Source: Iphione sp. A-MEVVRFRX5 | Lineage: Eukaryota | Assembly (NCBI GenBank): GCA_976226885.1 | Contig: OZ320322.1 | Location: 42,470,001 to 42,534,000 of the forward strand | Reading direction: 5' to 3' | DNA: 64,000 nt | In this document: piece after piece, positions 10,446 to 56,428 of the stretch | How positions within the stretch are numbered: the stretch's first letter is position 1 | How the letters are laid out: every line of letters begins with the position of its first letter | The notes under the pieces: generated by a model | What the model was told of the DNA's origin: nothing | Databases searched by the model: none | Seen by the model: only the letters and a program-made list of their open reading frames with translations | Made by a program: the position numbers and the translations under genes

Positions 10446-10756
10446 TGTAACGTCCGCTCCGCAAGTAAGACATGACTCCAGTTAAGATAAAGAGGTTTAT
10501 TCAGTAAGAACAATATGAGCATAAGCAGTGAGCACCAACAGTGAGCACTAAAGGTAATCTGAACTGCCCGGGTGGGCCAACTCCCTTATATACCCACCCC
10601 CAGTCTCCTCAGCATCCGGGTACCAGACCCCTCATACTCCGCAGCACCCCTTCGAGTGCCGCACGGGGGCGTGCCGCTGCACCCCACCAGTCCAGTCCAC
10701 TGTGCCGCAGCACCCCTGGTGTGCCGCGGTGCCGCAGCCACGCAGTGGCTCCAACA
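10446..10756 (-). repeat. 3' LTR
   Basis: TGTAACGTCC...CTCCAACA on plus strand; matches 20488-20798 at 306/311 positions by manual comparison; directly adjoins the PPT. Confidence 0.97.
10496..10501 (-). terminator. LTR polyadenylation signal AATAAA (copy in 5' LTR at 20538-20543)
   Basis: Minus strand CTGAATAAACC about 90 nt downstream of the TATA box, giving the expected U3-R-U5 order. Confidence 0.7.
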
Positions 10757-10769
10757 TTGCCCTCCCCTT
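10757..10769 (-). promoter_or_regulatory. Polypurine tract
   Basis: Minus strand AAGGGGAGGGCAA abuts the TG of the 3' LTR. Confidence 0.9.
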
Positions 10770-10947: not shown

Positions 10948-13668
10948 TCACAGGTAAACCGTCCATGACTCGCGGATGTGGACTTCCACGTTGGCCCCGG
11001 CGGTGGGCTCCTCCCGCCACGTGGACAGAAGCCGCACTGGACGGCCCCGCGTCAGCACCGTTCCGTAGTTGGCGTACCATGTGGCCAGCTCGCTGCCCGG
11101 GACCGGCACCCCAAGTCGTCGGAAGGTGACGGTCTGCCGGAGGACGACCTTCACCTGCCCGGCGGTGAGCACCTGCACATCCAAAGCCGAGGAGTTAGAA
11201 ATGACCATCCACCCGGGTGGTAGGGTGGATTCTGGTGACACCAAACGTGATGCCGCCCAGACGTACACGACGGCCGGAACCTCTTCCTCCGCTCCTGACG
11301 AGCCTGACACGTCTTGCAGGGATGCTCCCGTCCCAGGGGTTGGCCGGGCCGACCAAGGTACGCTGGGAGGTGCGGGCGGGCCAGAGGGGAGGTTTGGCCG
11401 CGTCCCCCACCCCCCCGGCCCCGGGAGCGCCGGTGGCCCCAGCGCAAGGGAGGGGCCCGAGGGAGGGCGTGCCCCGCGGCCAGGGCCCGGTGTCGGGCAG
11501 CGTGGAAGCCCTCCTGGCGATGCTGCTGCTGTTGGATCCTCCCAAGGTCTGACGGGGGCCACTCCGCGGGGGCTCGCTCTTCCCTCGCCTCCTGAGGTTC
11601 CCGGAGTGGATGTGAAAGGGGGCCCCCGTCCGCGGCCCCTTGTGGTCTCTCCAGCCGTCACAGGCACGCTGGCCCCGCCTTGCTTCTTTCGGGGTCCTTC
11701 CGGCCGAGTTATCCCCGGTACTGGGGACGTGCCCTGACCTCGAGTCCGCCCTGCGAACCAGCTCCCTCTCCCTCGCGAGGGCGCCGGCACCAGCTGGAGA
11801 TGAAGTGGAGAGGCCCGACGCACCCCCTCCGCCGGCCCTCTAGGCTCTCTAGGCCGCTCTGGGCTCGCCGTCTCTTCGGTGGCGTCTTCTTGTCGACTTC
11901 CAGTCGGTACTTCCTCGGGGGTCGTGCCTGTGGCTGGGCTGGCGGCGGGGCTGGTGGCTGGCCCAACCCCCTCTGTTGTGGCTACCTCGTCCCCTGTCGG
12001 CCCACTGGGCTCATGTGTCCGCCCTGGACCCACCGTCACCTCTTCGCCTCTCCGCTCCAGGGTGGTTGGAATGTTCCGCTGGCTCTCCGTTGGTGCCTCT
12101 ACGATGATCAGGCTCGCGGCTGAACTGTCCGTGGGGTCGGGAGTTGGGCCGGCCCCCTCGGTGGCAGTAAGGTTGGATATCACGCCGCCACCCGGGCTCT
12201 CCTCCGTCTCCGCCTCCTTCTGCGTCACGGAAGTTGGGACCTCTTCCTGCTGCGGACTCCCCGGAGGTCTTGCCGTGATTCCCACTGTGTCTGCGTCGTT
12301 GGTCCCCAGAGGCACCCTCGGTGCCGTGGGCATGGTTGGCTGGGGAATCAGTGTCTGGCACGGGTGAGCTGTGCGGGCGCAGGGCCGTGCCGTCGGGGGG
12401 GGGGGGGGCTCCGGCTCCTCCTCGGAGGATTCCTCCTCAAAGAGGGTCGCCAGCTCCTGGTCCTCCTCACCGTCGTCCCCGGGGGCCTGCCCCTCACTCG
12501 AGGACCCGTGTGTCACGGTCGGGCCTGTGGTCAAGGGCTCCCCGGCTGGGTCAGCCTCCGTGGCCCCCCCCAATCTCGGCTTCTTGGCTGGCGATGGTGT
12601 GATGGACCCGGGCGGTGTTACAAGGTCCACCACGTCTCCCTCCACCGGCCGTTCCCAACCTAAGCCTAGGCGTTCGTCCAGCCGACGTTCGTCTTCTTCC
12701 CACGATGGCGCTCCAATCGGGGTCCCTTGCCTGGGCTCCCCGCGACGGTCGGGGGCACCCCTGCCCATGCCAGGGAGGCGACATGGGGGTGACAGCCCGG
12801 CAGACCGGGCCGTGGGGGAGGCCCAGAAGGTCGCTCGCACTCCCACCTGGCGAGTCCCCGCCGCACCGGAGAGTCCGGACAATCCCTCGCCCCTCGGCTC
12901 CACGGTCGTTCCCCGGGGCAGGGTCACCTGCAGTTGCGGGGGAGGCTCGTCAGCCGACGTCTGGCTAGCTGAGTCCAGGAATAGTCTGCGTCCCTTGTAG
13001 TGCGACGCCCCGGCAGGCAGGTCTATGTTGTCGGGTGTGGCTACCTCTGGCCGTGGTGGGGGGGCGTCCCGTCCTTCTTTTTCTCGGGAAGGGGGGCGGT
13101 GCAGTCTTGCATACGTGCGAGTGGCCAAACGCTGGTCCAAGCGGGGCGGAGGTCCCGATCCCCCACTGCCCTGACTGTCTCCCGTCGCGGCTCCCGTGGA
13201 GCCAGTGTACTGGCCTAGGGCTTCCTGGGGCGAGGGCTCGGCCGTGGAAGGGATGCTGCCATCACCCGCCCCGTCGGGGGTTCCTGTGCCGCGATCCGAC
13301 GTCTGACCGGAGACGGGGGACCCCCCTCCTTCGCTGTCTGGCGGGAGATCGGGCATGGCCGACGCTGGAGGCCCGGGGGCGCGATGGTCAGGCCCCTCCT
13401 CGCGAAGGACGCTGGCCGCCCATTCCTTCACCAAGCGCCGCACCTCATCTGTGGAAGAGTCCCGGCCTGAGCTGCTACTAGGCGGGGGACCCGGTGGGGT
13501 CTGCGGTCCTTGGTGTGGGGCATCCACTGAGCGGCCCGTCCCTCGTCCCTCCAGAGCAGCAGCGGTGCCCTCGGCGCCAGGAGGGCGTGGCGGTGCCCCC
13601 TTATCCGGTTCCGGTGCCCCTGTGGTTGCGGGCGGTGGGGAGGTCCGGCGCAACTGCTCCCACTCCGG
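10948..13668 (-). CDS. Accessory ORF (906 stop-free codons): disordered P/G/T/E-rich region plus C-terminal ~110-aa beta-rich domain of unknown function
   Basis: Stop-to-stop frame of 2.7 kb ending about 190 bp before the PPT/LTR; first ATG at 13356; no signal peptide or transmembrane segment; likely the frameshifted continuation of the zinc-finger ORF. Confidence 0.8.
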   Translation of the reverse strand, partial: PEWEQLRRTSPPPATTGAPEPDKGAPPRPPGAEGTAAALEGRGTGRSVDAPHQGPQTPPGPPPSSSSGRDSSTDEVRRLVKEWAASVLREEGPDHRAPGPPASAMPDLPPDSEGGGSPVSGQTSDRGTGTPDGAGDGSIPSTAEPSPQEALGQYTGSTGAATGDSQGSGGSGPPPRLDQRLATRTYARLHRPPSREKEGRDAPPPRPEVATPDNIDLPAGASHYKGRRLFLDSASQTSADEPPPQLQVTLPRGTTVEPRGEGLSGLSGAAGTRQVGVRATFWASPTARSAGLSPPCRLPGMGRGAPDRRGEPRQGTPIGAPSWEEDERRLDERLGLGWERPVEGDVVDLVTPPGSITPSPAKKPRLGGATEADPAGEPLTTGPTVTHGSSSEGQAPGDDGEEDQELATLFEEESSEEEPEPPPPPTARPCARTAHPCQTLIPQPTMPTAPRVPLGTNDADTVGITARPPGSPQQEEVPTSVTQKEAETEESPGGGVISNLTATEGAGPTPDPTDSSAASLIIVEAPTESQRNIPTTLERRGEEVTVGPGRTHEPSGPTGDEVATTEGVGPATSPAASPATGTTPEEVPTGSRQEDATEETASPERPREPRGPAEGVRRASPLHLQLVPAPSRGRGSWFAGRTRGQGTSPVPGITRPEGPRKKQGGASVPVTAGETTRGRGRGPPFTSTPGTSGGEGRASPRGVAPVRPWEDPTAAASPGGLPRCPTPGPGRGARPPSGPSLALGPPALPGPGGWGTRPNLPSGPPAPPSVPWSARPTPGTGASLQDVSGSSGAEEEVPAVVYVWAASRLVSPESTLPPGWMVISNSSALDVQVLTAGQVKVVLRQTVTFRRLGVPVPGSELATWYANYGTVLTRGRPVRLLSTWREEPTAGANVEVHIRESWTVYL

Positions 13669-16600
13669 TCAGCGTCCCCGGTCATGGTCTCCTCCCCACC
13701 CAGGGGGCCCGACGACACCGTCCGGGATACCACTCCCGGCGCCCGGGCAGACGGCAGGGCACTCTCCTCCGACGAACTGGGAGGGCGATCCCTCCGTTGT
13801 CGGGTGGGCGCTCCCCGTCGCCGTCGTGCCTTCCGGGTCCCCCCGATTGCTCGGGGTCCCGACGGGGTCCATGCGCCAGTAGACGTCGACGGCTGCGCTG
13901 GCGGTGGCTCCGCCCAGTCCTCTGGCTGCTCGGCCGATGAACCAGCTTCGGGCCCTTGCTGCCGCGGCGTTGCAGCCCCTGGGATGACTGCGGAGGGTCC
14001 CTCTGCTCGGTTGTCGCTACCTTCTTCCGGCGTAGCGGAGCGCCCTCTTTTTTTACTGCTTCGCTTGGAGGCCCCTCTATGCGTCGGGAGTCGGCCCGCC
14101 GCTCTGCGCACTTCCTTCTCCCGGCTCTTCTTTTCTCGGGCCCGGGCTCGCTGAAGCATCTCCACCTTATCGGCCGGGCAGAGACGCGGCTCCCCGTAGG
14201 TGGGGTTGAGACCCCAGAACCGCAGGTACTGGAGGTCCACTGTCAGGGCCCAATCGTTGGGTTCGTGGACCCCATTCAGGTGCCGCTTCCAGTCGGTGCG
14301 CCGGTGGAAGGCTTGTTGCTCACACTCGGGGTCGGGGCACAACCAGCCCAATCCCTCAGGCGCATGCACATCTTTCAGGTGGGGGCGCAGGTTGGACGGC
14401 TGTGCGAACGTGGATGCACAGCGGGAGCAGCAGTGACGGCGCTCCTCCGGGGCACCTGGTTCCTCCTCGCCAGAGGACCCCGAGTCGTCGCTCTCAGCGT
14501 CGGGTGGGGGGGCGTCCTCTGGTGCGTCAGCCATGTCGTCGATGTGGCGATGCGGCACCGGTGAGGCACAATTCGCAGGTGGCGCACGGCCGCTCGGTGA
14601 CGAGACAGCGAGGGCCGCAGCGGCACTGCGGGTCTGAACCGGTTTCGGTGGGGCACGGTCGGCCTCTGCGGCGCTGCGGGTCTCCTCGCGTGGATGGCTG
14701 GTTACGGTACTGCTGCGATCCTCTCGCTGTTGGTCGTCGCCGGGTAGTGCCGCGGCGGTGCCCTGGCACCCTGGCTGCGGCGATGCGTCTGCTAGATCGC
14801 CGCACAGCGGCAGGGGTGCGTCGACTCCACTGGGGCGTGCGAGCCTGCGGCCACTACGTCGGAGGGGGATGGTGCGGCTACAGTCCACCCCCGTGCGGCA
14901 CGCCAGTCGAGCTGCGGAAGAAAGGTACCCATGAGAGTAACGGTTCCAGGTAGTTCCCTCCGCAGCGGCGACAGGTTTACCACACATTTCATCGAAAAAC
15001 AAGGGTGCATCACGACCTTCGCCGCTCACCCAGCGCGGCTTTCTCCCGTTACCCCGGTTATCGCCCATGTGTGCTGCTACCAACGGTAGGTTCCTCACCT
15101 CGTGCTGCCGCGGCGAATCCCTCGTCGAAGTCAGACGTTGAGCGGCAGCGGCTTCTCTTCTGTCGCCGTGGCCCCGGGTCGATGTTCTCTGGTCAGTGGG
15201 CTTAGGTGCGTTCTGTCGGTGCTCGACACGTGTCGCGTGGATCACGACGCTGTGGATCGTGTGGTGTCGCTCGGGTGCAACTTCCTGCGGCTCCCCTGGC
15301 GCCGCCTGGAGACTAGCGGTCGAATCACGCGGTATTACGGTTGACGGGGTGGGGCCCAGCGCGCTGCCTCTTATACGCTGAGATGCGGCTGCGGCGCCCT
15401 CTATCAGCATGGCGTAACTGTGCGGCCTTGCGGCTTCCTCCTGGGCCCGCTGCATCTCGTCCTGTGCCGCTGTGGCCTCCTGAACGCCGCACGTTACTTG
15501 GGGGTTGAGATGGGCGATCTTCAGGCGATCTGCATGAACTACTCTATGCCGATGTCCATGACTGACTCGGTACACCACTTCGGACAACACCTTCTCCACG
15601 GTCCAAGGCCCCTCCCACCAACTCTGCAACTTCGGGGAGATTCCCTTCTTACGGGCCGGGGTGAAAAGCCAGACTCGGTCGCCCTCGGCGTACCGTTGGT
15701 GCCTCACCCCTCGGTTGTACCAGTCCTTCTGTTGTGCTGCCACACGACTCAGCTTCTCTGCTACTTTCTCATGCGCCCGGCGGACCTCTTCCGCTATCCG
15801 GCTCGCGTATTCCCCACGATCCACCAGGGGTGGGGCCGGGCCACCATAGCGCAGCTCCACTGGCAGCGTCACCTCTCGGTGCAACAACGTCTGGTTCGGT
15901 GATTCCCCCGTGGCGTTGTGGGGGGTGGCCCGGTAGGCGGCCATCACGAACGGCAGGGCTTGGTCCCAGTCCTTCCGGCGCTCCTCGGCTAGCGTGCCCA
16001 GCATGTTCCCCAATGTGCGATTAAATCGCTCGACTACCCCATCACTCTGGGGGTGGTAGGGGGTGGTTCGGGATTTCTCTATCCCGAGGAGTCGTAGTAC
16101 TTCCACGAACAGCGCCGCCTCAAAATTACGGCCCTGGTCCGAATGGAGTACCCGTGGGGGGCCGAAACGGCAGACCACTTCCCTAACGATGATGTCTGCT
16201 GTGGCCGCCGCGGTGGCCTCTTCAAGAGGGAACGCCTCCGTCCACTTCGAGAAGTGGTCGGCCACTACCAGGATGTACCTGTTTCCCCTCTCTGTCACAG
16301 GAAGCAGCCCCAAGATGTCTGCCGCCAGCACTTCCCACGGCTCCGACACGGGGCATCCTTGCAGGTGGGCCCGGTGGCGCCTCCCCTGCCCCTTCCTTTG
16401 TTGGCATGCCTGACAGCACTGGGACCAGCGTGCAACGTCGCGCGACATCCCGGGCCAAAACCAGCGCCGGCGCAGCGCTGCTCCAGTCTTCTCTGGACCA
16501 AGATGGCCACCCACCGGGCCCGCGTGGGTCTCCTGCCAGAGGCTTTTCCGTATGGCCCGGGGGACATAGGTCTGAGGGAGCCTCTGCCGGTCCTCCTCTT

Positions 16601-16670
16601 CCCAAAGGCGCACCAGTGCTCCTGATCGGAGCTCGAGTCTCGGGCCTTCCGCTCTGAGCTGTCTTTCTTC
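13428..16670 (-). CDS. pol: Pol part 2: integrase (HHCC, DDE, GPY/F) continuing in frame through a ~320-aa linker into a C2H2 zinc-finger region
   Basis: Same frame as part 1 directly after the TAG; HAGPVGGH...CCQAC, DILG, HSDQGRNF, DGVVERFN, WEGPWTV; no stop until 13428. Confidence 0.9.
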   Translation of the reverse strand, partial: EERQLRAEGPRLELRSGALVRLWEEEDRQRLPQTYVPRAIRKSLWQETHAGPVGGHLGPEKTGAALRRRWFWPGMSRDVARWSQCCQACQQRKGQGRRHRAHLQGCPVSEPWEVLAADILGLLPVTERGNRYILVVADHFSKWTEAFPLEEATAAATADIIVREVVCRFGPPRVLHSDQGRNFEAALFVEVLRLLGIEKSRTTPYHPQSDGVVERFNRTLGNMLGTLAEERRKDWDQALPFVMAAYRATPHNATGESPNQTLLHREVTLPVELRYGGPAPPLVDRGEYASRIAEEVRRAHEKVAEKLSRVAAQQKDWYNRGVRHQRYAEGDRVWLFTPARKKGISPKLQSWWEGPWTVEKVLSEVVYRVSHGHRHRVVHADRLKIAHLNPQVTCGVQEATAAQDEMQRAQEEAARPHSYAMLIEGAAAASQRIRGSALGPTPSTVIPRDSTASLQAAPGEPQEVAPERHHTIHSVVIHATRVEHRQNAPKPTDQRTSTRGHGDRREAAAAQRLTSTRDSPRQHEVRNLPLVAAHMGDNRGNGRKPRWVSGEGRDAPLFFDEMCGKPVAAAEGTTWNRYSHGYLSSAARLACRTGVDCSRTIPLRRSGRRLARPSGVDAPLPLCGDLADASPQPGCQGTAAALPGDDQQREDRSSTVTSHPREETRSAAEADRAPPKPVQTRSAAAALAVSSPSGRAPPANCASPVPHRHIDDMADAPEDAPPPDAESDDSGSSGEEEPGAPEERRHCCSRCASTFAQPSNLRPHLKDVHAPEGLGWLCPDPECEQQAFHRRTDWKRHLNGVHEPNDWALTVDLQYLRFWGLNPTYGEPRLCPADKVEMLQRARAREKKSREKEVRRAAGRLPTHRGASKRSSKKRGRSATPEEGSDNRAEGPSAVIPGAATPRQQGPEAGSSAEQPEDWAEPPPAQPSTSTGAWTPSGPRAIGGTRKARRRRGAPTRQRRDRPPSSSEESALPSARAPGVVSRTVSSGPLGGEETMTGDADRSGSSCAGPPHRPQPQGHRNRIRGHRHALLAPRAPLLLWRDEGRAAQWMPHTKDRRPHRVPRLVAAQAGTLPQMRCGAW
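14265..14429 (-). other. Two tandem C2H2 zinc fingers
   Basis: CSRCASTFAQPSNLRPHLKDVH fits C-x2-C-x3-F-x5-L-x2-H-x4-H; CPDPECEQQAFHRRTDWKRHLNGVH is C-x4-C-x13-H-x4-H. Confidence 0.85.
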
Positions 16671-19178
16671 CTAGGTCAACCCAGCCCGCAGTCCAGGGAG
16701 GGGCCCCCCTTCCTCCAGCGCTTGGATGAGCTCGCCTGTTGCCGGTTCCACCCTCTGCATCTGGCACACATCTGGACCACCCTCCACTCCGGCGATGCCT
16801 ACCGCCGCCGCACTCTCGGACCCCAGGTCTCGCCGGCCGCACTGCTTGCATTCTTGCCGTGATAGTCCGTCTGCGTTACCATGTCGTTTCCCTGGCAGGT
16901 GCGTGATCCGGAGGTCATGACAGAAGACCTCCTCCAACCACCTGGCCAGCTGACCTTGTGGTTCGTGGAAGTTACACAGCCAGCGCAAGGAATCATGGTC
17001 GGTGCGGATGTCAATGGCCCGGCCCCCCACATAGCATCTAAACTTCCGGAGGGCGAACACCACCGCCAAGAGTTCCTTCCTCGTAACGCAATAGTTCCGC
17101 TCGGGGCGGGTCAGTGTGCGGCTGGCGTAGGCTAGCACCCGCTCACGCCCTTCCTGCACTTGAGACAACACCGCACCGATGCCAGTGTCGGAAGCATCGG
17201 TGTCCAGGAGCAGCTGCCCCACGGGTGTCGGATAACCCAGGATGGGGGTAGTGGACAGCCGGGCCTTCAGCTGTTCGAAGGCTTCTTGACAGGCCGGGGA
17301 CCACTCAAACTCCCGCTCTGCTCCAGCCAGGGCATGCAGGGGTGCCGCTAGGGTGGCAAACCCTTCCACAAAGCTGCGGTAGTACGAGCAGAGTCCTAGA
17401 AAGCTACGAAGTTCTGCTGCACACCGAGGGCGGGGCCATCGCGAGACGGCCCTGATCTTCTCTGGGTCGACCCCCACTCCTTCCGCCGAGACCCGATGGC
17501 CCAGGTATGCCACCTCTCGCTGGAATAGTTGACACTCGGACGCTTTGACGCGGAGTCCGGCCTCAATCAGCCTCTGGAATACTGTGCTGAGTCGTGTGCA
17601 CATCTCCTCCACCGAGCGGCCCAGGACGATCACATCGTCGAGGTACACTAAACACTCGGTGCCCACGAGGCTCCGCAGTACGGACTCCATAAGCCGCTCA
17701 AAGGTGGAGGGCGCGTTGCAGAGGCCGAACGGCATTACCCGGAACTGGTAAAGGCCGTTCGGGGTGCATGCCGCCGTCTTTTCTGCGTCCGCTGGCTCCA
17801 TCTCGACCTGCCAGTAACCGCTGGCCAGGTCGATTGCCGAAAAATACTGGCTACCCTGCAGAGCATCGAGGGTGTCGTCTATCCGGGGGAGGGGGAACGC
17901 GTCCTTCTTGGTGATGGCGTTGAGTTTGCGATAGTCGATGCAGAACCGTAGCCCCCCATCCTTCTTTTGTACGAGCACCAACGGAGATGCCCATGGACTT
18001 GTGGAGGGCTCCAGCACCCCCTTCTGCACCATCTTGTCTACCTCCGCGCGAACTGCCTCCCTCTTGTGAGGGGGGAGGCGCCTTGCTCGTTGACGAATGG
18101 GTGGGTGACCCTGGGTCTCGATGCGATGTCGGACTTCCGGGGTACGGCCGAGCGGACCACTGGCTGTCTGGAAGACCTCGCGATGGCGCCGTAGCATGGC
18201 CGCTATCTGCTGCCGCTCCGGGTCGGTGGTCTCTACCGGTAGTTGCCCTAGCAAGTACTCTACAGCTTGCTCTTGCTCTGCCTCCACCTGCTCCTGGGGA
18301 GCCTCGGGTGGTCCAAGCACCGCGGCGACCTGACGGAGCTCGGCCAACCGGGTTCCCTCGAAGACTTGTGTCACCTGGGAGCCGGGGTTCCACACTGGAA
18401 CCCACACCCTCCCCTCCTGAGGTCGTACCAGCGCGCAAGCCACTCGTAGCCCCGAGCGTGACTCGAACCTGGCGTCAGGCTCCGCCAACCCTTCCAAAGA
18501 GTCGACCCCTCCTTGACACGCCTTCGCCTGAACCCAGCCTATTCCTCCCGCAGGAATCTCTTGACTGCTGCTGGCTCGCAGGGTGGCCGCCCATTCACGG
18601 TTGCCGGGCCAAACAGTGACCGTGGCCTCCCTCGTATCTACTGTTGCCGCCCACCGATCCAGCCAGTCGAAGCCAAGTAGACCCGGTATCTCCATCTCTA
18701 CCACAATGGCCACCACCTGTAGGGTGACCCCTGCGAACCGAACTTCGCAATCCACCAGCCCCAATACTTGTAGGGCGCTGCCATCCACTCTGAAGACTCG
18801 CGCCCCCGCCGGGTCCAACGACACCCCCTGTAGTTCTCGGTAGGTCCGTGCCGAGAGGAGGGAAGCGGAGGCTCCTGTGTCCACCAGCCAGTCCACCACC
18901 TGTCCGCCGACTTCTCCCTCTAGCAATACTCCCCGGCACCCCGTCCTCCTCCTTCCCTGCAGTACCCTCCTTGGCTCCCCCTCGACGGCAGCGACCATCG
19001 CCTCCAAGGGGGGTCCCAGGCCGGGTGGTACGGAATCGGACGCCGCCCGCCCTACTGAGCCGGGGCGGGCGGCTTCTCGTTTTCCGGCTGCGCTGGAGCA
19101 ACGTCGGTGGTGTTCTCGGCTGCCTTCCGTACTGGGCAGTCCCGCTTGAAGTGCCCAGGCTCCTTGCAGTAAAAGCAT
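16671..19178 (-). CDS. pol: Pol part 1: aspartic protease, reverse transcriptase, RNase H; ends at an in-frame TAG (16673-16671)
   Basis: Protease LVDTGAS; RT LVQKKDGGLRFCIDYRKLN, RVMPFGLCNAP, YLDD; RNase H LDTDASDTGIGAVL, ELLAVV, RTDH, NADGLSR. Confidence 0.95.
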   Translation of the reverse strand: MLLLQGAWALQAGLPSTEGSREHHRRCSSAAGKREAARPGSVGRAASDSVPPGLGPPLEAMVAAVEGEPRRVLQGRRRTGCRGVLLEGEVGGQVVDWLVDTGASASLLSARTYRELQGVSLDPAGARVFRVDGSALQVLGLVDCEVRFAGVTLQVVAIVVEMEIPGLLGFDWLDRWAATVDTREATVTVWPGNREWAATLRASSSQEIPAGGIGWVQAKACQGGVDSLEGLAEPDARFESRSGLRVACALVRPQEGRVWVPVWNPGSQVTQVFEGTRLAELRQVAAVLGPPEAPQEQVEAEQEQAVEYLLGQLPVETTDPERQQIAAMLRRHREVFQTASGPLGRTPEVRHRIETQGHPPIRQRARRLPPHKREAVRAEVDKMVQKGVLEPSTSPWASPLVLVQKKDGGLRFCIDYRKLNAITKKDAFPLPRIDDTLDALQGSQYFSAIDLASGYWQVEMEPADAEKTAACTPNGLYQFRVMPFGLCNAPSTFERLMESVLRSLVGTECLVYLDDVIVLGRSVEEMCTRLSTVFQRLIEAGLRVKASECQLFQREVAYLGHRVSAEGVGVDPEKIRAVSRWPRPRCAAELRSFLGLCSYYRSFVEGFATLAAPLHALAGAEREFEWSPACQEAFEQLKARLSTTPILGYPTPVGQLLLDTDASDTGIGAVLSQVQEGRERVLAYASRTLTRPERNYCVTRKELLAVVFALRKFRCYVGGRAIDIRTDHDSLRWLCNFHEPQGQLARWLEEVFCHDLRITHLPGKRHGNADGLSRQECKQCGRRDLGSESAAAVGIAGVEGGPDVCQMQRVEPATGELIQALEEGGPLPGLRAGLT
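19042..19085 (-). promoter_or_regulatory. Candidate -1 ribosomal frameshift signal (gag to pol)
   Basis: pol is in the -1 frame relative to gag; G_GAA_AAC at 19085-19079, 5-nt spacer, then a perfect 11-bp stem GCCGCCCGCCC/GGGCGGGCGGC with a 10-nt loop that overlaps the gag TAG. Confidence 0.75.
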
Positions 19179-20470
19179 CCTTCGTTGTTCGCGCGCTTCC
19201 CGCCTCGCCTAACGGGGGAAGCTGTTGTTGCGGGATGCTCCAGTAGCTTGGACAGGAGCTGCTCAATGCGCTCCAATCCGGTCGTTGTCTTGGCGTCGTG
19301 GCTGGCCGCCGCCACCTCTTGAGATTCAGCCTGTGCCGCATGGACACGCGTCGCCCCAGCCCCCGGGCTGCGCTCCTTCTCGGCGCGGTGGTACGACTCG
19401 GCCAAGAGCGCCTCCGAGATGGCTGCCTGAAAAGACTGGGCCTTAGCTTGCACGACCCATCTCCGGCAACGCTCTTCGCGGAGGGCCGAGACGAAGGCAT
19501 CCTTGCACATTCGATCCAACCAGGAGCCCTCGGCCTCCGGGTAGGCCTGCCGTACCAATCTTTCAATTTTCTCGGCCAGTTTCTGGACGTCCTCGTCCTT
19601 CTTCTGGCGACGCTGTTTCAACTCCTGCTCATAATACTGGGCTCGATCCTCCGACTGGAACCTCTGTCGCAGGGTCTCGACAATAGTCGAGAACGCTCCC
19701 TCAGCGGATACATCCACATTGGCTGAGCGGAGGGCGGATTGTGCCGAGCCCCTGAGACACACGCTGAGTTGCAGCGCCTGTTCCGCTTCGTCCCATCGAT
19801 TGGCCCGGGCCACCAGGGAGAAGTGGTGCAGGTATTCCGCAAGGGGGACTCCTCCACTGAAGGATTCCGGTTTGACATGGAATCGGCGTGTCGGGGGTAC
19901 CGGGGGGGCAGGCCGGAGAGCGGACTGGATCTCATCCATCAGTCCCCGCACCAGCTGGACGGCGTTTCCCTGTCCGCCCCCGGCCGGGCTCGGGTTGTGC
20001 GGGGGAGGGCCAGCCGGCGGGGCTGCTGGCGGCGGGGAGGCCGGGGCAGCGGGGTCGCGAGGGTTCGCCGTTCCATCTGCCTGTCCTCCTACCCCGGTGG
20101 GGGCTCCGGGCGTGGTGTCGTCACTGCCCCTCCCACGGGGTGAGCCGGCCCCGCTGGGAATAGAAGAATCCTCACTGCTGCTGCGGCTCGATGAGTGGTC
20201 TTCGTCCGACAGTGCTGTGCCACTGCGGCACAAAGGGGTGCGGCGGCACGGTGGGGTGCTGCGGCGCAGTGGGGTGCTGCGGCACGGTGGGGTGCCGCGG
20301 CCCCGCGGCACGCGATGCGCCCGGAGCTGCACCTCCTCGTCCTCAGTGCTGGAGTCTTCCCTCGTGGGGGACCACTCGTGGGGAATGGTACGTCCCACGT
20401 GTCCCCCCCGGGGGGCAGGGCGTGTCCCCCTTCCTCGCGGTCGCGGTGCTCCGGTGGGTGATTCCTCCAT
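19052..20470 (-). CDS. gag: Gag: long R/P/S-rich N-terminus, capsid-like domain, CCHC zinc knuckle
   Basis: Capsid-like KPESFSGGVPLAEYLHHFSLVARANRW...LRQRF; knuckle CFYCKEPGHFKRDC; start at ATG 20470, or at the in-frame ATG 20515 inside the LTR. Confidence 0.92.
   Translation of the reverse strand: MEESPTGAPRPRGRGTRPAPRGGHVGRTIPHEWSPTREDSSTEDEEVQLRAHRVPRGRGTPPCRSTPLRRSTPPCRRTPLCRSGTALSDEDHSSSRSSSEDSSIPSGAGSPRGRGSDDTTPGAPTGVGGQADGTANPRDPAAPASPPPAAPPAGPPPHNPSPAGGGQGNAVQLVRGLMDEIQSALRPAPPVPPTRRFHVKPESFSGGVPLAEYLHHFSLVARANRWDEAEQALQLSVCLRGSAQSALRSANVDVSAEGAFSTIVETLRQRFQSEDRAQYYEQELKQRRQKKDEDVQKLAEKIERLVRQAYPEAEGSWLDRMCKDAFVSALREERCRRWVVQAKAQSFQAAISEALLAESYHRAEKERSPGAGATRVHAAQAESQEVAAASHDAKTTTGLERIEQLLSKLLEHPATTASPVRRGGKRANNEGCFYCKEPGHFKRDCPVRKAAENTTDVAPAQPENEKPPAPAQ
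20223..20294 (-). repeat. 4 x 18-bp tandem repeat inside gag (TP(P/L)(C/R)R(S/R) hexapeptides)
   Basis: ctgcggcacaaaggggtg / cggcggcacggtggggtg / ctgcggcgcagtggggtg / ctgcggcacggtggggtg. Confidence 0.9.
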
Positions 20471-20486
20471 CCCACCGCTGCCACCA
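20469..20486 (-). promoter_or_regulatory. Primer binding site complementary to the tRNA-Leu 3' end
   Basis: Minus strand TGGTGGCAGCGGTGGGAT is the complement of ATCCCACCGCTGCCACCA, which I recognise as the 3' 18 nt of metazoan tRNA-Leu(AAG-type) including CCA. Confidence 0.9.
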
Positions 20487-20487
20487 A

Positions 20488-20798
20488 TGTAACGTCCGCT
20501 CCGCAAGTAAGACATGACTCCAGTTAAGATAAAGAGGTTTATTCAGTAAGAACAATATGAGCATAAGCAGTGAGCACCAACAGTGAGCACCAAAGGTAAT
20601 CTGAACTGCCCGGGTGGGCCAACTCCCTTATATACCCACTCCCAGTCTCCTCAGCATCCGGGTACCGGACCCCTCATACTCCGCAGCACCCCTTCGAGTG
20701 CCGCACGGGGGCATGCCGCTGCACCCCACCAGTCCAGTCCACTGTGCCGCAGCACCCCTGGTGTGCCGCGGTGCCGCAGCCATGCAGTGGCTCCAACA
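20488..20798 (-). repeat. 5' LTR
   Basis: Second LTR copy; on the minus strand it is followed by 1 nt and then the PBS. Confidence 0.97.
20628..20634 (-). promoter_or_regulatory. LTR TATA box (copy in 3' LTR at 10586-10592)
   Basis: Minus strand GGGTATATAAGGG lies downstream of a GC-rich U3 and upstream of the AATAAA. Confidence 0.7.
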
Positions 20799-51900: not shown

Positions 51901-53677
51901 CCACCTGTCATCATGAACCACCACCATACACCACTGAATCAACAGTTCGATTTCAAAAGACTAGGGTTCCTCCCTTCAGGCGGCCCTCAGGCCCTACTGA
52001 ATATAACATACTACCGGCCTCTACTATTTGCAACGGATTCTACACAGGAAACTTCACGTCACTAATATCCCTCCTGTTTCTTCCTACTGTTACTCCTACC
52101 TGCACCACTGGTAGCATCCATCACCCACCATTACCCACACGACCACTCAGCGCCAAACCACCGCATACCCCAATTTTAAGTATCACCACTACCGTCATCA
52201 CCACCACTAGCACCACTACCTCCGATGACAGACCAATCCAGTGCCACCTTATAGGTGGATATTTGTCAAACCGTTTCCAATAGGTATCAAAAATAATTTT
52301 AAGAATCCGATACAAGCTGTCAGGCGAAGAGCTATTACTCTCATCCGGGGGGCATCGCTAAAATGACGGCCCATTTCTTCTGTCGGTTCTGTCGGTGTAG
52401 ATTTTCTGACGTTGCGGCATTTATTGACAGCAATTACGGTGCATGTGGCACGGCCTAATGTTCCTGTTGTGGGGAGGGGAAAGGGAAGGGGGTTTGCGGT
52501 AGACGCCATGACAACCGGTCGGAAGCACAAACCTTGAATAATGGAGGTTCCAGGGCCCCTGTGCAGGTCGTTTATTGCTGTCTGCTTATCACGTAAGCAT
52601 TAGTTGTGACACCCTGAGGATCCCAAACGACAGTTTATGGTACCAAAACAAATTGGGTTATAGTGGATTTCTATGTCCTCCTTCACCACAGGGGAGAATT
52701 AGAATTATATCAGGAATAAAACATCCCGTCTGTTATGCCACGGGCTTAGGGAGTTGCGGAGTTGACCGTTTGTTGTCACTGGTATTGTTGGATGGTGTTG
52801 TTGCCCTAGGCGCCGTTCACATATATCCATAGGGAAAAAACCGTCAATGGGTCCGTAGCGGTATATTTCTCCTGCTGATCATAAATTAATTGCCTACATA
52901 TGTATACCAGATGTGTAGTCACCATTGCTTTCCATTGAAAATCGATTCGTATCTGTAGGAAAATTTTGTCACCGATGGATCTTGTGTACAGATACGCATC
53001 TGTATATATTTTGAAATAGATATATTATGTGAACAGTTTAATACAATTGCTATGGTCAGATAAGAAACGTCTCCTGAGCCATATTTGTTCTCAGAAAATA
53101 CCTTAAGGCGATTGTGTTGTTTGTATGTAGTGATAAGTGGTGCAAAAGTTGGGTAGCAGGGTTGCTTGTAGGAGGCAACTGTTTTGTTGGATAGTTGTAC
53201 TTCCTGACCAACAGTCATGGTGTTTGTGATAAGTAAAGGCGGGTGGTTTTGTTGGGTGACACTGTTGACTGTTACTGGTAGTCAGCTGTATTGTTAGCTC
53301 TTCCTGTAAGGTAATAATGATGCTATCTGTGCTAGTCATGGAAGGTAATGATATTGGTTTGAGATGGTGACAGGGGTAGTAGAAATTCGTCAGTATTATC
53401 AATGTCAGTAGGGGGAAATGGTTGCTACGCTACTGGACGATTCTGGTTAGTGATTCAGTTGCAAAGGTGAACATGGGTGTTGGTGGTGGTTCATGGTGTC
53501 CGTGGTTGTTGTGCGTTCTGCGGACTGTTGTTGGGAAAAGATCGTGGCAGGAGAGCAATAGATTGCTGCCGGTGATGTTTGCAGTTGTCTGCAGGGGTAG
53601 CCTGCCTGGTATTGCTTGTTATTTGCATGATATTTGTGTGTGTCCAAATTTACTCCAACTGAACACCCAACCCTGCA

Positions 53678-56428
53678 ATGGGGTTAACAGTGGTCTCATA
53701 CAATATTCGTAGTTTAGGGAAGAAGGTAACTGACCTCGGACATCTGTTGGCTTGTCACAATGTGGATGTATGTTGCATCACTGAATCTTGGTTAAACAGC
53801 ACCTACCTAGATTCCAATGTAGCTATTCCTGGATATGATTTGGTGCGCCAGGACAGAAACAGGGTCCATGCCCAAAGAGGTGGGGGCATAGTCATTTATT
53901 TCAAAAGTCACTTTCAGGTGATCAGAAAGTATGACGTGGGACCATCAGAATCCACCTGCGAAATGCTGGGGATTCGACTTAAGGCTGGCAAGAGAAGGCC
54001 AATAGATGTCCTGGCAGTTTATAGACCACCTGGCGATCCAATAGCGAAGTCAACGCAAGCGATTGACCAAGCAGTGGGAATGCTGCCCCGACATGGCCGA
54101 AGTGATAGAATCATCACCGGTGATTTTAATTACCACTTTGGCTGTCCAGGCAGAATTGGTAATGCCATTGCTAATGTACTAGCTGGTCGAGGTTTCAGCC
54201 AGCTGGTAACCAAAGCTACAATGATCTCCTCGGACTCTGTCCTAGACCACTTGTGGGTTGACTTCACAGGCCACCTAGGCGGGAAGATACTCGAGTGGTT
54301 TCTAAGCGATCACCTGGCGGTATCAGTCACCATCAAAAAAGGAGTGCGGTCTAAGCAGAAGGAGTCCGTAGTCACTCGCAAATGGAATCAAGTTGATGTG
54401 CCGGCCCTACATGATAAGCTAAGGAGTGAAGCTATCATAATGGAGGGCTGTCACGAGACGGCGTGGGATACCTTTGTGGATAAGCTATGCGTCGAGTTAG
54501 AGGTAACTGCCCCTGCAGTCACTAAGGTCCGCAAGGTTGAAAGAGACGGATTTGTGATGAGCAACGGACTGGCCGAGGTCGCACGCGACCGCCTATACTA
54601 CTTCCGCAGGTGGAAGAAGGACAAAAATGAGGACGATCACAGGATTTTTAAGCACCTAGATAAGGTGCTAAAATCTGAGTTAAGGAAAGAGCGGAAGTTC
54701 TACTGGACAAGTAGAGTAAACTCAGCTATGGGTGACCCCCGTAAACTATGGCAGGTGCTAAACTCGGCCATAGGAAGGGGAGAGACCAAGGTGACTCTAC
54801 CCAGTCTGTCTGAAGAAAAGGGCAAGACAGGGGAAGATCTAGCAAATCACTTTAACACCTACTTCGTTGATGAAGTCCAAAAGCTAGTAAGGGAGCCGAA
54901 AACAACTGCAACTTCTGGCAGGACAAAATCTGACAGGAGATTTGAGTTGTCGGAGCCGACGCCATGTACCGTGAGACCTCTCTTGGCCAGCTTAAAACTT
55001 CACAAGTCATCAGGCATAGAGGGAGTACCTATCAAAATTCTGAAACCCCTTTTGTTGCTTTGCAGTGACTTTGTTGCCTGGGTGTTCAGCTCCATCTACG
55101 AATCGGGCCACTATCCGGCCTCTTGGAAGATAGCCCGCATCACCCCCGTCTTTAAGAAGGGGGATGTGCAGTTAACTTCCAACTACCGTCCAGTATCAAT
55201 ATTACCCGCACAGGGCAAAGTCTTTGAAAGATGGTTGGTACAGGGAGTTACAAAAGAATTGGAGAGACGAAACATCCTGAGCCCAAACCAGCATGGCTTC
55301 CGCCGCAATCGTGGAACTGACACCGCAATTGCCAAACTGCTGTATGAGACTCATGAGGCCTTGAACAGGGGCTACTATTGCAGCCTGACACTGTTTGATT
55401 TCAAAAAGGCGTTCGATTTAGTATCCCACAGCAGTGTCGTCAGCAGACTCCGGACAGCAGGAGCAGGGCCAAAGCTCTGCAAAGTGATGGAGAGCTATCT
55501 CACTGGCAGAAGACAGTATGTCCGCTGCAGTGGCTACGACTCCACAGAGCTTCTGGTGCGGACTGGAGTGCCGCAGGGGTCAGTAGTAGGCCCCATTGCC
55601 TTCTGTCTGGTGGTAGACACTGTGGTGGACATACTACCGAAAGAGTCTTGTGCTGTACTATACGCGGACGACTTATCAGTGCTGTGCGTGGCTAGAGACT
55701 TGATGAAACTACGAGAGATCACCCTGCGTACCGTCCAGGAAGTGATCAAATGGAGCGATGACCAAGGGTTGGTACTGAGCCTGGCTAAGTGCAGTTATAT
55801 GCCGCTGGGTAAGGCGTCAGGTATCCCTATGGACATTGTAGTCGATGGTACAATCCTTGAGATGACTGAGGAAGTGAAGCTCTTAGGGTATCACCTAGAC
55901 TCAAAGCTTAAGTGTGGGAAAGCTGTAAGGAAAATCAAATCCACCATGTGGGTAGCTGCATTAAAAATCAGCAGAGCGAAACGGAACCTGCCGCTATCCG
56001 TGAGAGTCCTATTGTTCAAGTCGCTTGTGGTCTCCATTCTGCACTACCATGCAGTGTCACTCTACGGTATGTCCCGGGGAGACATGGTAAGACTACAGGT
56101 GCATCTGAATAGGTGCGCCCGTCTATCAATACAGGACGGTGTCCATTTGTCAGCAAGGGTGCTTCAAACTAGGTTCGGTATTGAGAGACTTGAATCAATG
56201 GTGAGCTTCAAAGGGTTGCAGGCAGTTCACAAGCTAAGCAAGTTGAGGCTGGTGGACAAGGCCGAAGCAACCAATACCAGGATGGGAACAACTCACAGAA
56301 TAATGGTTTCAAAACTGAAGAGTAAGCTGTTCTCAGGGTCACTTGCCTACGCGGCAGTTAGGACCTGGAACAGCCTTGGCCCGAGTGTCAAGGCTATGGA
56401 CAGGCTGCCGAGAAATGCCGGCAGCTAA
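53678..56428 (+). CDS. Apurinic-like endonuclease plus reverse transcriptase (916 aa, LINE ORF2-like)
   Basis: APE motifs YNIRSL, CITESWL, VYRPP, TGDFN, LDH, SDH; RT motifs NYRPVSIL, QHGFR, DFKKAFDLVSH, GVPQGS, YADD; C-terminal RTWNSL. Confidence 0.96.
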   Translation: MGLTVVSYNIRSLGKKVTDLGHLLACHNVDVCCITESWLNSTYLDSNVAIPGYDLVRQDRNRVHAQRGGGIVIYFKSHFQVIRKYDVGPSESTCEMLGIRLKAGKRRPIDVLAVYRPPGDPIAKSTQAIDQAVGMLPRHGRSDRIITGDFNYHFGCPGRIGNAIANVLAGRGFSQLVTKATMISSDSVLDHLWVDFTGHLGGKILEWFLSDHLAVSVTIKKGVRSKQKESVVTRKWNQVDVPALHDKLRSEAIIMEGCHETAWDTFVDKLCVELEVTAPAVTKVRKVERDGFVMSNGLAEVARDRLYYFRRWKKDKNEDDHRIFKHLDKVLKSELRKERKFYWTSRVNSAMGDPRKLWQVLNSAIGRGETKVTLPSLSEEKGKTGEDLANHFNTYFVDEVQKLVREPKTTATSGRTKSDRRFELSEPTPCTVRPLLASLKLHKSSGIEGVPIKILKPLLLLCSDFVAWVFSSIYESGHYPASWKIARITPVFKKGDVQLTSNYRPVSILPAQGKVFERWLVQGVTKELERRNILSPNQHGFRRNRGTDTAIAKLLYETHEALNRGYYCSLTLFDFKKAFDLVSHSSVVSRLRTAGAGPKLCKVMESYLTGRRQYVRCSGYDSTELLVRTGVPQGSVVGPIAFCLVVDTVVDILPKESCAVLYADDLSVLCVARDLMKLREITLRTVQEVIKWSDDQGLVLSLAKCSYMPLGKASGIPMDIVVDGTILEMTEEVKLLGYHLDSKLKCGKAVRKIKSTMWVAALKISRAKRNLPLSVRVLLFKSLVVSILHYHAVSLYGMSRGDMVRLQVHLNRCARLSIQDGVHLSARVLQTRFGIERLESMVSFKGLQAVHKLSKLRLVDKAEATNTRMGTTHRIMVSKLKSKLFSGSLAYAAVRTWNSLGPSVKAMDRLPRNAGS

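Follow-up and report, generated by a model that had tools for sequence, protein, structure and literature searches.

A Gypsy retrotransposon lineage with a C2H2 zinc-finger tail fused in frame to Pol, a candidate self-encoded LTR regulator

What is a pair of zinc fingers doing behind the integrase of a Gypsy retrotransposon? LTR retrotransposons are generally taken to depend on transcription factors of their host, and transactivators encoded by the element itself are seen as typical of complex retroviruses. The locus lies in a 64,000-nt stretch of an Iphione sp. A-MEVVRFRX5 contig (OZ320322.1, 42,470,001 to 42,534,000, forward strand; hereafter the window), where a Gypsy element of 10.35 kb occupies positions 20798-10446 on the minus strand. 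The element is flanked by a 4-bp target-site duplication (TAAT), its LTRs measure 311 nt each, with 5 mismatches over 312 aligned nt between the 5' and 3' copies, and its GC content of 61-71% compares with a host background of about 40%. It shows the Ty3/Gypsy arrangement of gag followed by PR-RT-RH-IN, along with TG..CA LTRs, a primer-binding site (PBS) that we take to be tRNA-Leu-like, a polypurine tract, and the target-site duplication. Its features are as follows.

20488..20798, minus strand: 5' LTR, 311 nt; U3 with TGC-N-GC repeats, TATA at about 20633, AATAAA at about 20543
20469..20486, minus strand: primer-binding site, identical in sister families
19052..20515, minus strand: gag with a CCHC knuckle; starts in U5, frame runs through the PBS
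16671..19208, minus strand: pol (PR-RT-RNaseH), terminated by a stop found in the window copy alone
15510..16670, minus strand: integrase with H2C2, rve, and GPY/F p58-C
15371..15375, minus strand: predicted TATA box of an internal promoter, preceded closely by GCCGCA motifs at 15395 and 15389
14912..15098, minus strand: predicted 187-nt intron in the open Pol frame, with phase-0 donor, branch point, pyrimidine tract, and phase-1 acceptor
14532..14534, minus strand: first ATG past the acceptor, in the finger frame; predicted start of a free protein; ATG+G in 44/44 copies
14364..14429, minus strand: C2H2 finger 1, helix damaged by a proline in the window copy
14265..14339, minus strand: C2H2 finger 2, with R-1, D3, and R6 in all families
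14120..14264, minus strand: conserved beta-hairpin and helix, predicted from a structure model to fold with the fingers
11323..14119, minus strand: low-complexity linker with a frameshift at about 13643 and short conserved motifs, among them LDxRLGxGW
12996-12979, minus strand: GRRLF motif in the low-complexity linker
12636-12616, minus strand: SIM-like DVVDLVT in the low-complexity linker
12591-12571, minus strand: SP-x-K-R/P basic run in the low-complexity linker
10948..11322, minus strand: orphan C-terminal domain and stop codon, predicted alpha-beta-beta twice
10446..10769, minus strand: polypurine tract and 3' LTR (the LTR at 10446-10756)

Three other identities were rejected: an env-bearing, errantivirus-like Gypsy (no third ORF with a signal peptide and transmembrane helix), a chromovirus (no chromodomain behind the integrase in the window ORFs, with no Pfam chromo match at E up to 1), and a foamy virus (no env gene). 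The gag frame starts inside U5 and reads through the PBS (window 20515-20469), the start motif being found in sister families as well, and the gag/pol overlap of the window copy contains no XXXYYYZ slippery heptamer. Elsewhere in the window, a LINE-type ORF of 921 aa with endonuclease and RT lies at 53663-56428 on the plus strand.

The initial annotation, made from the window alone, had described about 3.6 kb of coding sequence as a free-standing ORF in the env slot of a Gypsy element. The features it listed are all there: a gacATGG at 14534 followed by an acidic patch and two C2H2 fingers, then basic runs, DVVDLVT, and an acidic tract, with a compact C-terminal domain last, up to the stop at 10948. 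The reported lack of a signal peptide or transmembrane helix also extends to the sister proteins, 9/9 of which have a maximum Kyte-Doolittle 19-mer of 0.66-1.15. The ORF is not free-standing, however: the integrase ORF 16670-13428 includes ATG 14534 as its codon 713, and no stop intervenes ahead of the fingers. The 3.6 kb are thus coding as an in-frame C-terminal extension of Pol, but not as one ORF in the window copy. What had been overlooked is this fusion, the breaks in the window copy, and the promoter and intron predicted within the frame. The window copy is decayed, with a stop in pol (16673-16671) that is private to it (1/44 copies) and a one-base frameshift at about 13643 that splits the 3.6-kb region and is common to 4/44 copies. 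It also carries a compensating indel pair at 12409/12346, and a proline in the finger-1 helix that is missing from the 20 long-ORF copies described below.

Across the 1.18-Gb genome, each end of the region is matched at least 150 times, far above chance, and the matches fall into identity bands near 95, 60, and 50%. In all 20 long-ORF sister copies, RT, integrase, and both fingers share one frame, which continues through the end of the C-terminal domain in 19; intact copies form a single ORF of about 2,366-2,742 aa, the last part of which is the orphan domain, and the LTR pairs are 98.7-100% identical in 20/20. Because these copies were picked for long frames, a choice that favours openness, loci not chosen in this way were examined too. 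Among 35 of these, the linker between integrase and fingers is open in 23, vs 16 for the integrase itself, and when loci were picked by integrase alone, a finger lies in the integrase frame in 25/30 and no stop occurs in 534 codons in 19. Across 112 of 124 loci with both sites (the other 12 being truncated, diverged, or misaligned), the linker is open and in frame in 78, compared to 72 for an equal stretch from the fingers onward. The frame runs open through linkers of 240-615 codons that are mostly unalignable between families and hold 4-21 stops in their other frames; the fingers and C-terminal domain retain 42-64% identity between families. The longest belongs to copy L036, where tandem repeats stretch the linker to 615 codons with the frame unbroken. 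Overall, the tail behind the integrase measures 1,150-1,500 aa; it contains two folded modules, and candidate expression signals are embedded in its sequence. Ten representatives form one branch (SH-aLRT 100 in a quick tree of 71 rows that included no named reference elements); group H is sister to families E and F (support 0.99), and the nearest outside integrases are 45% identical to those of the lineage.

We estimated dN/dS from 44 family-A copies, separating variants common to at least two copies from singletons. Shared-variant dN/dS was 0.05 for the finger module, 0.06 for the C-terminal domain, 0.05 for the integrase, and 0.07 for RT-RH, rising to 0.15-0.39 in the disordered part and 0.44-0.54 in the linker. 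Singleton values ranged from 0.36 to 0.89 overall (fingers 0.71, C-terminal domain 0.89, integrase 0.61), and the shared-vs-singleton contrast for fingers and C-terminal domain was marked (Fisher p about 5e-11). The in-frame fusion of fingers to Pol and its maintenance by purifying selection in this Gypsy lineage are, in our judgement, beyond reasonable doubt. Three signs of a spurious feature had been named beforehand, namely sister copies lacking the region, random stops with dN/dS near 1, and a host gene fragment confined to this copy; instead, the region is retained in sister copies, its folded parts show dN/dS of 0.05-0.06, and it occurs well beyond the window copy. The fingers do resemble generic host C2H2 proteins, as expected if the region were a functionless passenger captured from a host gene, but we consider this reading scarcely credible: it is already contradicted by the selection signal, at least eight divergent subfamilies within one clade have kept the region, and no host homologue was found beyond the generic finger. 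Between integrase and acceptor, amino-acid selection on the linker was not detectable (shared vs singleton, p 0.34), hence the Pol-fused form may be tolerated more than used.

A second set of signals lies inside the open pol frame. Splice sites and TATA boxes were scored with approximate, general matrices. By these scores, the top donor and the top acceptor of the linker each rank first of the whole ORF in 18/20 copies, ties counted; under strict ranking, the donor alone takes first place in 5/9 representatives and the acceptor in 8/9, vs 0/9 and 1/9 in the antisense control. The donor is in phase 0 and the branch-point acceptor in phase 1 in 20/20 copies (the second-best linker acceptor in one of them), and in one copy the best-scoring acceptor falls upstream of the donor. 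The predicted introns span 169-487 nt, contain 1-7 ATGs each, and are all 3n+1 nt long. ATGs number 0 in the 1,120 nt ahead of donors vs 27 in 2,048 nt of introns, with none within 140 nt before the donor in 8/8 representatives, and the first ATG past the acceptor is in the finger frame in 20/20, opening 879-1,225 codons. Over the acceptor, synonymous variation is as low as 0.17, compared to mostly 0.5-1.0 elsewhere. The top-scoring TATA of the ORF stands 187-331 nt ahead of the donor, with no ATG between, in 12/20 copies (families A-D), and the TATAA of the window is retained in 39/41 family-A copies covering the site; no TATA box was found before the donor in families E, F, G, or H. Group H retains the phase-0 donor in 8/8 copies and a phase-1 acceptor followed by an in-frame ATG in 7/8. 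Given this conserved donor, acceptor, and in-frame first ATG, the original choice of ATG 14534 as a start still looks real, and a free, spliced finger protein is likely made.

Two further observations concern the acceptor region. In copies L038-L044 and L033-L035, the frame spliced in from upstream stops at the ATG, the two overlapping (ATGA, TGATG, TAATG) in 7 copies and the stop lying 5 nt before the ATG in 3, in arrangements that resemble stop-restart signals. Separately, families A-D and G conserve, at the protein level, a KPRW-x-x-G-x-GR patch that lies within the predicted intron (window 15062-14960) behind an in-frame ATG; a longer isoform could arise if this intron were retained.

None of 124 loci lacks the intron, and no intron-less retrocopy was found among 40 scored of 48 candidates. 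A message without a PBS would not be expected to leave intron-less copies, and unused sites would give the same result. A conserved 5' donor in the LTR or gag, as for env-type splicing, was not found in sister copies. The same signals could instead serve an RNA regulator similar to Rev or CERV, or the 3n+1 intron could be a switch in full-length RNA that truncates Pol and couples to the finger ORF by stop-restart. All 20 introns have the appropriate length, the shifted frame stops at most 5 nt from the ATG in 10/20 copies (families C, E, and F), and the abstract of PMC10309623 provides a precedent for a Gypsy-type export factor from spliced mRNA. Spliced full-length RNA should, however, leave intron-less copies, which the 124 loci do not include, the stop lies 23-350 nt off the ATG in the remaining 10 copies, and the finger helices resemble DNA-reading ones by the general finger code. 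We therefore judge an RNA-level role decidedly unlikely.

The predicted free protein would be soluble by hydropathy and carries a low-complexity middle of 610-960 aa. Its fingers fit C-x2-4-C-x12-H-x3-5-H with a beta-beta-alpha fold, the pattern of classical C2H2 arrays, with single-sequence Pfam scores below cut-off. A model of the finger pair with the adjoining hairpin and helix (pLDDT 88.8) aligns best to DNA-bound finger pairs (CTCF at a modest Z of 5.6, rmsd 2.5, 57 aligned). Helix residues N3 and R6 of finger 1 and R-1, D3, and R6 of finger 2 are retained in 8/8 representatives and look like DNA-reading residues, predicting sequence-specific binding; the general finger code would specify GCG-GAN, a partial match only to GCN-GCA. 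Within the disordered middle, (G)RRLF is retained in 9/9 representatives and, read by eye, LDxRLGxGW and a SIM-like motif in 8/9 each, with SP-x-K/R runs also retained. We take these to be SIM-, cyclin-, and CDK-type motifs, (G)RRLF presumably resembling a cyclin-docking motif. The latter (window 12996-12979) was not found in group H.

The C-terminal domain is modelled as two alpha-beta-beta units (pLDDT 87.7). It has a possible likeness to phage tail terminators (best match at Z 7.5, rmsd 4.0, 98 aligned, 4% identity), and no Foldseek match had E below 0.001. Profile searches found no homologue of this domain and matched the fingers to two generic host finger proteins, although these searches were word-limited and such absence weighs little. 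ESM Atlas returned weak or generic matches for both modules, Pfam has no family for the 906-aa ORF or the C-terminal domain, and we found no enzymatic or known chromatin domain in the tail.

A candidate target for the fingers recurs in the LTRs. TGC.G[CA] occurs in U3 of 8/8 family representatives (91 vs 16.3 in shuffles), and the 600 nt examined ahead of five internal TATA boxes contain TGCGG[CA] 12 times vs 3.1 per kb of ORF, one of the five having none. Group H retains the finger-2 residues and has lost N3 and R6 of finger 1, and the TGCGG repeat is absent from its U3 in 8/8 copies; in three group-H U3s, row L231 being left out, TGC.G[CA] numbers 4 vs 11.2 in shuffles and GTGC[AT] 41 vs 14.4. 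The sole subfamily with an altered finger-1 helix also has an altered U3 repeat, a link that represents one evolutionary event. These counts cover the finger-bearing lineage, the integrase family search having given almost only its members. The U3 repeat forms a palindrome and might be a site for a host factor instead. That the fingers bind the TGC-N-GC repeats and activate transcription is our prediction, at roughly even odds.

The invariant recognition-helix residues, the LTR repeats that change with finger 1, and the conserved SIM-like and SP-x-KRP motifs all favour a nuclear regulator, as the initial annotation had proposed in one form. Another of its suggestions, a factor that targets integration, is unsupported: across 32 flanks, the sequence 3' of insertions is not enriched for the repeat (0.16 vs 0.52 per kb), the target duplications tend to be AT-rich, and we rejected integration targeting to the repeat. 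The 4-bp duplications of family-A copies are biased to ATAT (10/32) and related words. These flanks also bear on whether the Pol fusion alone matters, the tail serving, like a chromodomain, to tether the integrase or to import it into the nucleus, with the splice and TATA signals being incidental. Such a module would fit the frames that stay open through unalignable linkers, the intron missing from none of the 124 loci, and the finger behind integrase in 4/120 listed outside Pol relatives. Against it stand the unenriched flanks and AT-rich duplications, and it leaves the conserved phases, ATG-free leaders, and synonymous suppression unexplained; we regard it as unlikely.

The direction of regulation is a separate matter. 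Instead of activating transcription, a free LTR-binding protein might work through SUMO-dependent partners to counter silencing, or might repress its own element and thereby control copy number. The architecture and motif evidence fits this too, including the SIM-like hydrophobic-acidic motif in 8/9 representatives, but the tail has no enzymatic or known chromatin domain, motif clusters upstream of the internal TATA suit positive feedback, and the families are young and expanding according to their LTR identities (98.7-100%, 20/20). We hold it to be a fairly unlikely alternative to activation.

Taken together, these results lead us to favour, with a probability of about 0.5, a self-encoded LTR regulator similar to that of foamy viruses and made both free and fused to Pol. 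Transcription would start in the linker behind the integrase, and a short, ATG-free first exon would be spliced across the ATG-containing intron to the acceptor, giving a message that ends in the 3' LTR and, without a PBS, would not be retrotransposed. From this predicted internal promoter and spliced mRNA, a free nuclear protein of 879-1,225 aa would be produced, with two fingers that may recognize the TGC-N-GC(A) repeats, both those of U3 and those ahead of the internal TATA, switching on LTR transcription in a positive feedback as foamy Tas does. Host factors would be recruited by the SIM-, cyclin-, and CDK-type motifs of the disordered part. When fused to Pol, the protein might carry the regulator in the particle to act on new cDNA, or protease might cut the regulator off; this is the weakest step of the proposal.

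Several components have counterparts in known systems. In foamy viruses, a second promoter within a coding gene drives a transactivator of the LTR and of the internal promoter (PMC4411673, PMC7828637), which serves as our predicted working model. Unlike these viruses, the present element is a Gypsy without env and its promoter is predicted in the integrase tail, and unlike Tas, its putative regulator is a classical C2H2 protein in frame with Pol, known from sequence alone. The Gypsy-like Tor3b/4b elements of Oikopleura express a 3' gene from an internal promoter located in or behind pol, but this gene encodes a membrane Env in an ORF of its own, and the transcripts showed no splicing (PMC4402516). 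Cer1 of C. elegans encodes CERV, a phospho-regulated nuclear protein from a spliced mRNA that exports genomic RNA; the abstract mentions neither fingers nor a Pol-tail fusion (PMC10309623). Other Pols carry a chromodomain, exonuclease, or helicase behind the integrase (PMC6338049), and, unlike in chromoviruses, no chromodomain was found there in the window ORFs; the tail of this lineage is the 1,150-1,500-aa one described above, with its two modules and embedded candidate signals. In plants, Grande gene23 and the Retand ORFs encode nuclear accessory proteins in the 3' region with their own promoter; these are antisense and separate from pol, and PMC7264820 mentions no zinc finger or C2H2. Neither PMC2774666 nor PMC13524379 mentions C2H2.

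The 4/120 listed outside Pol relatives in which the integrase is followed, in frame, by a C2H2 finger with a Met upstream are P0003 (a Pinctada gene model), P0046, P0060, and P0078. They carry one or two fingers behind GPY/F with the Met shortly upstream, belong to other branches of the RT tree, have short tails, are known here as proteins, and do not match the finger-module or C-domain profiles. Further Gypsy Pol relatives (P0105, P0098, P0099, P0076, P0103) have env-like (by eye), Ig, ankyrin, or PF02023 additions. Gypsy elements, internal promoters, and spliced regulators are each known, and this Pol-fused C2H2 design is undescribed in the literature that we searched. That search covered published literature rather than repeat databases (Repbase, Dfam, GyDB), where the families may be deposited with this feature undescribed.

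More tentatively, at somewhat below even odds, we propose that a complex Gypsy clade independently invented the foamy-virus plan, with a C2H2 transactivator whose promoter and intron would lie inside the open pol frame, made free and Pol-fused, its helix co-evolving with the enhancer repeats of its own LTR; the finger-tailed Pols of other animals would then reflect a recurrent, overlooked design. With promoter, intron, and start all within the pol frame, annotation will miss such a gene. Subfamilies that differ in finger helix and LTR repeat provide a natural, directly testable pair of factor and site. If the proposal is true, the line between retrotransposons and complex retroviruses would be blurred by a Gypsy clade that encodes a sequence-specific factor of its own, and positive feedback would explain the family-specific bursts.
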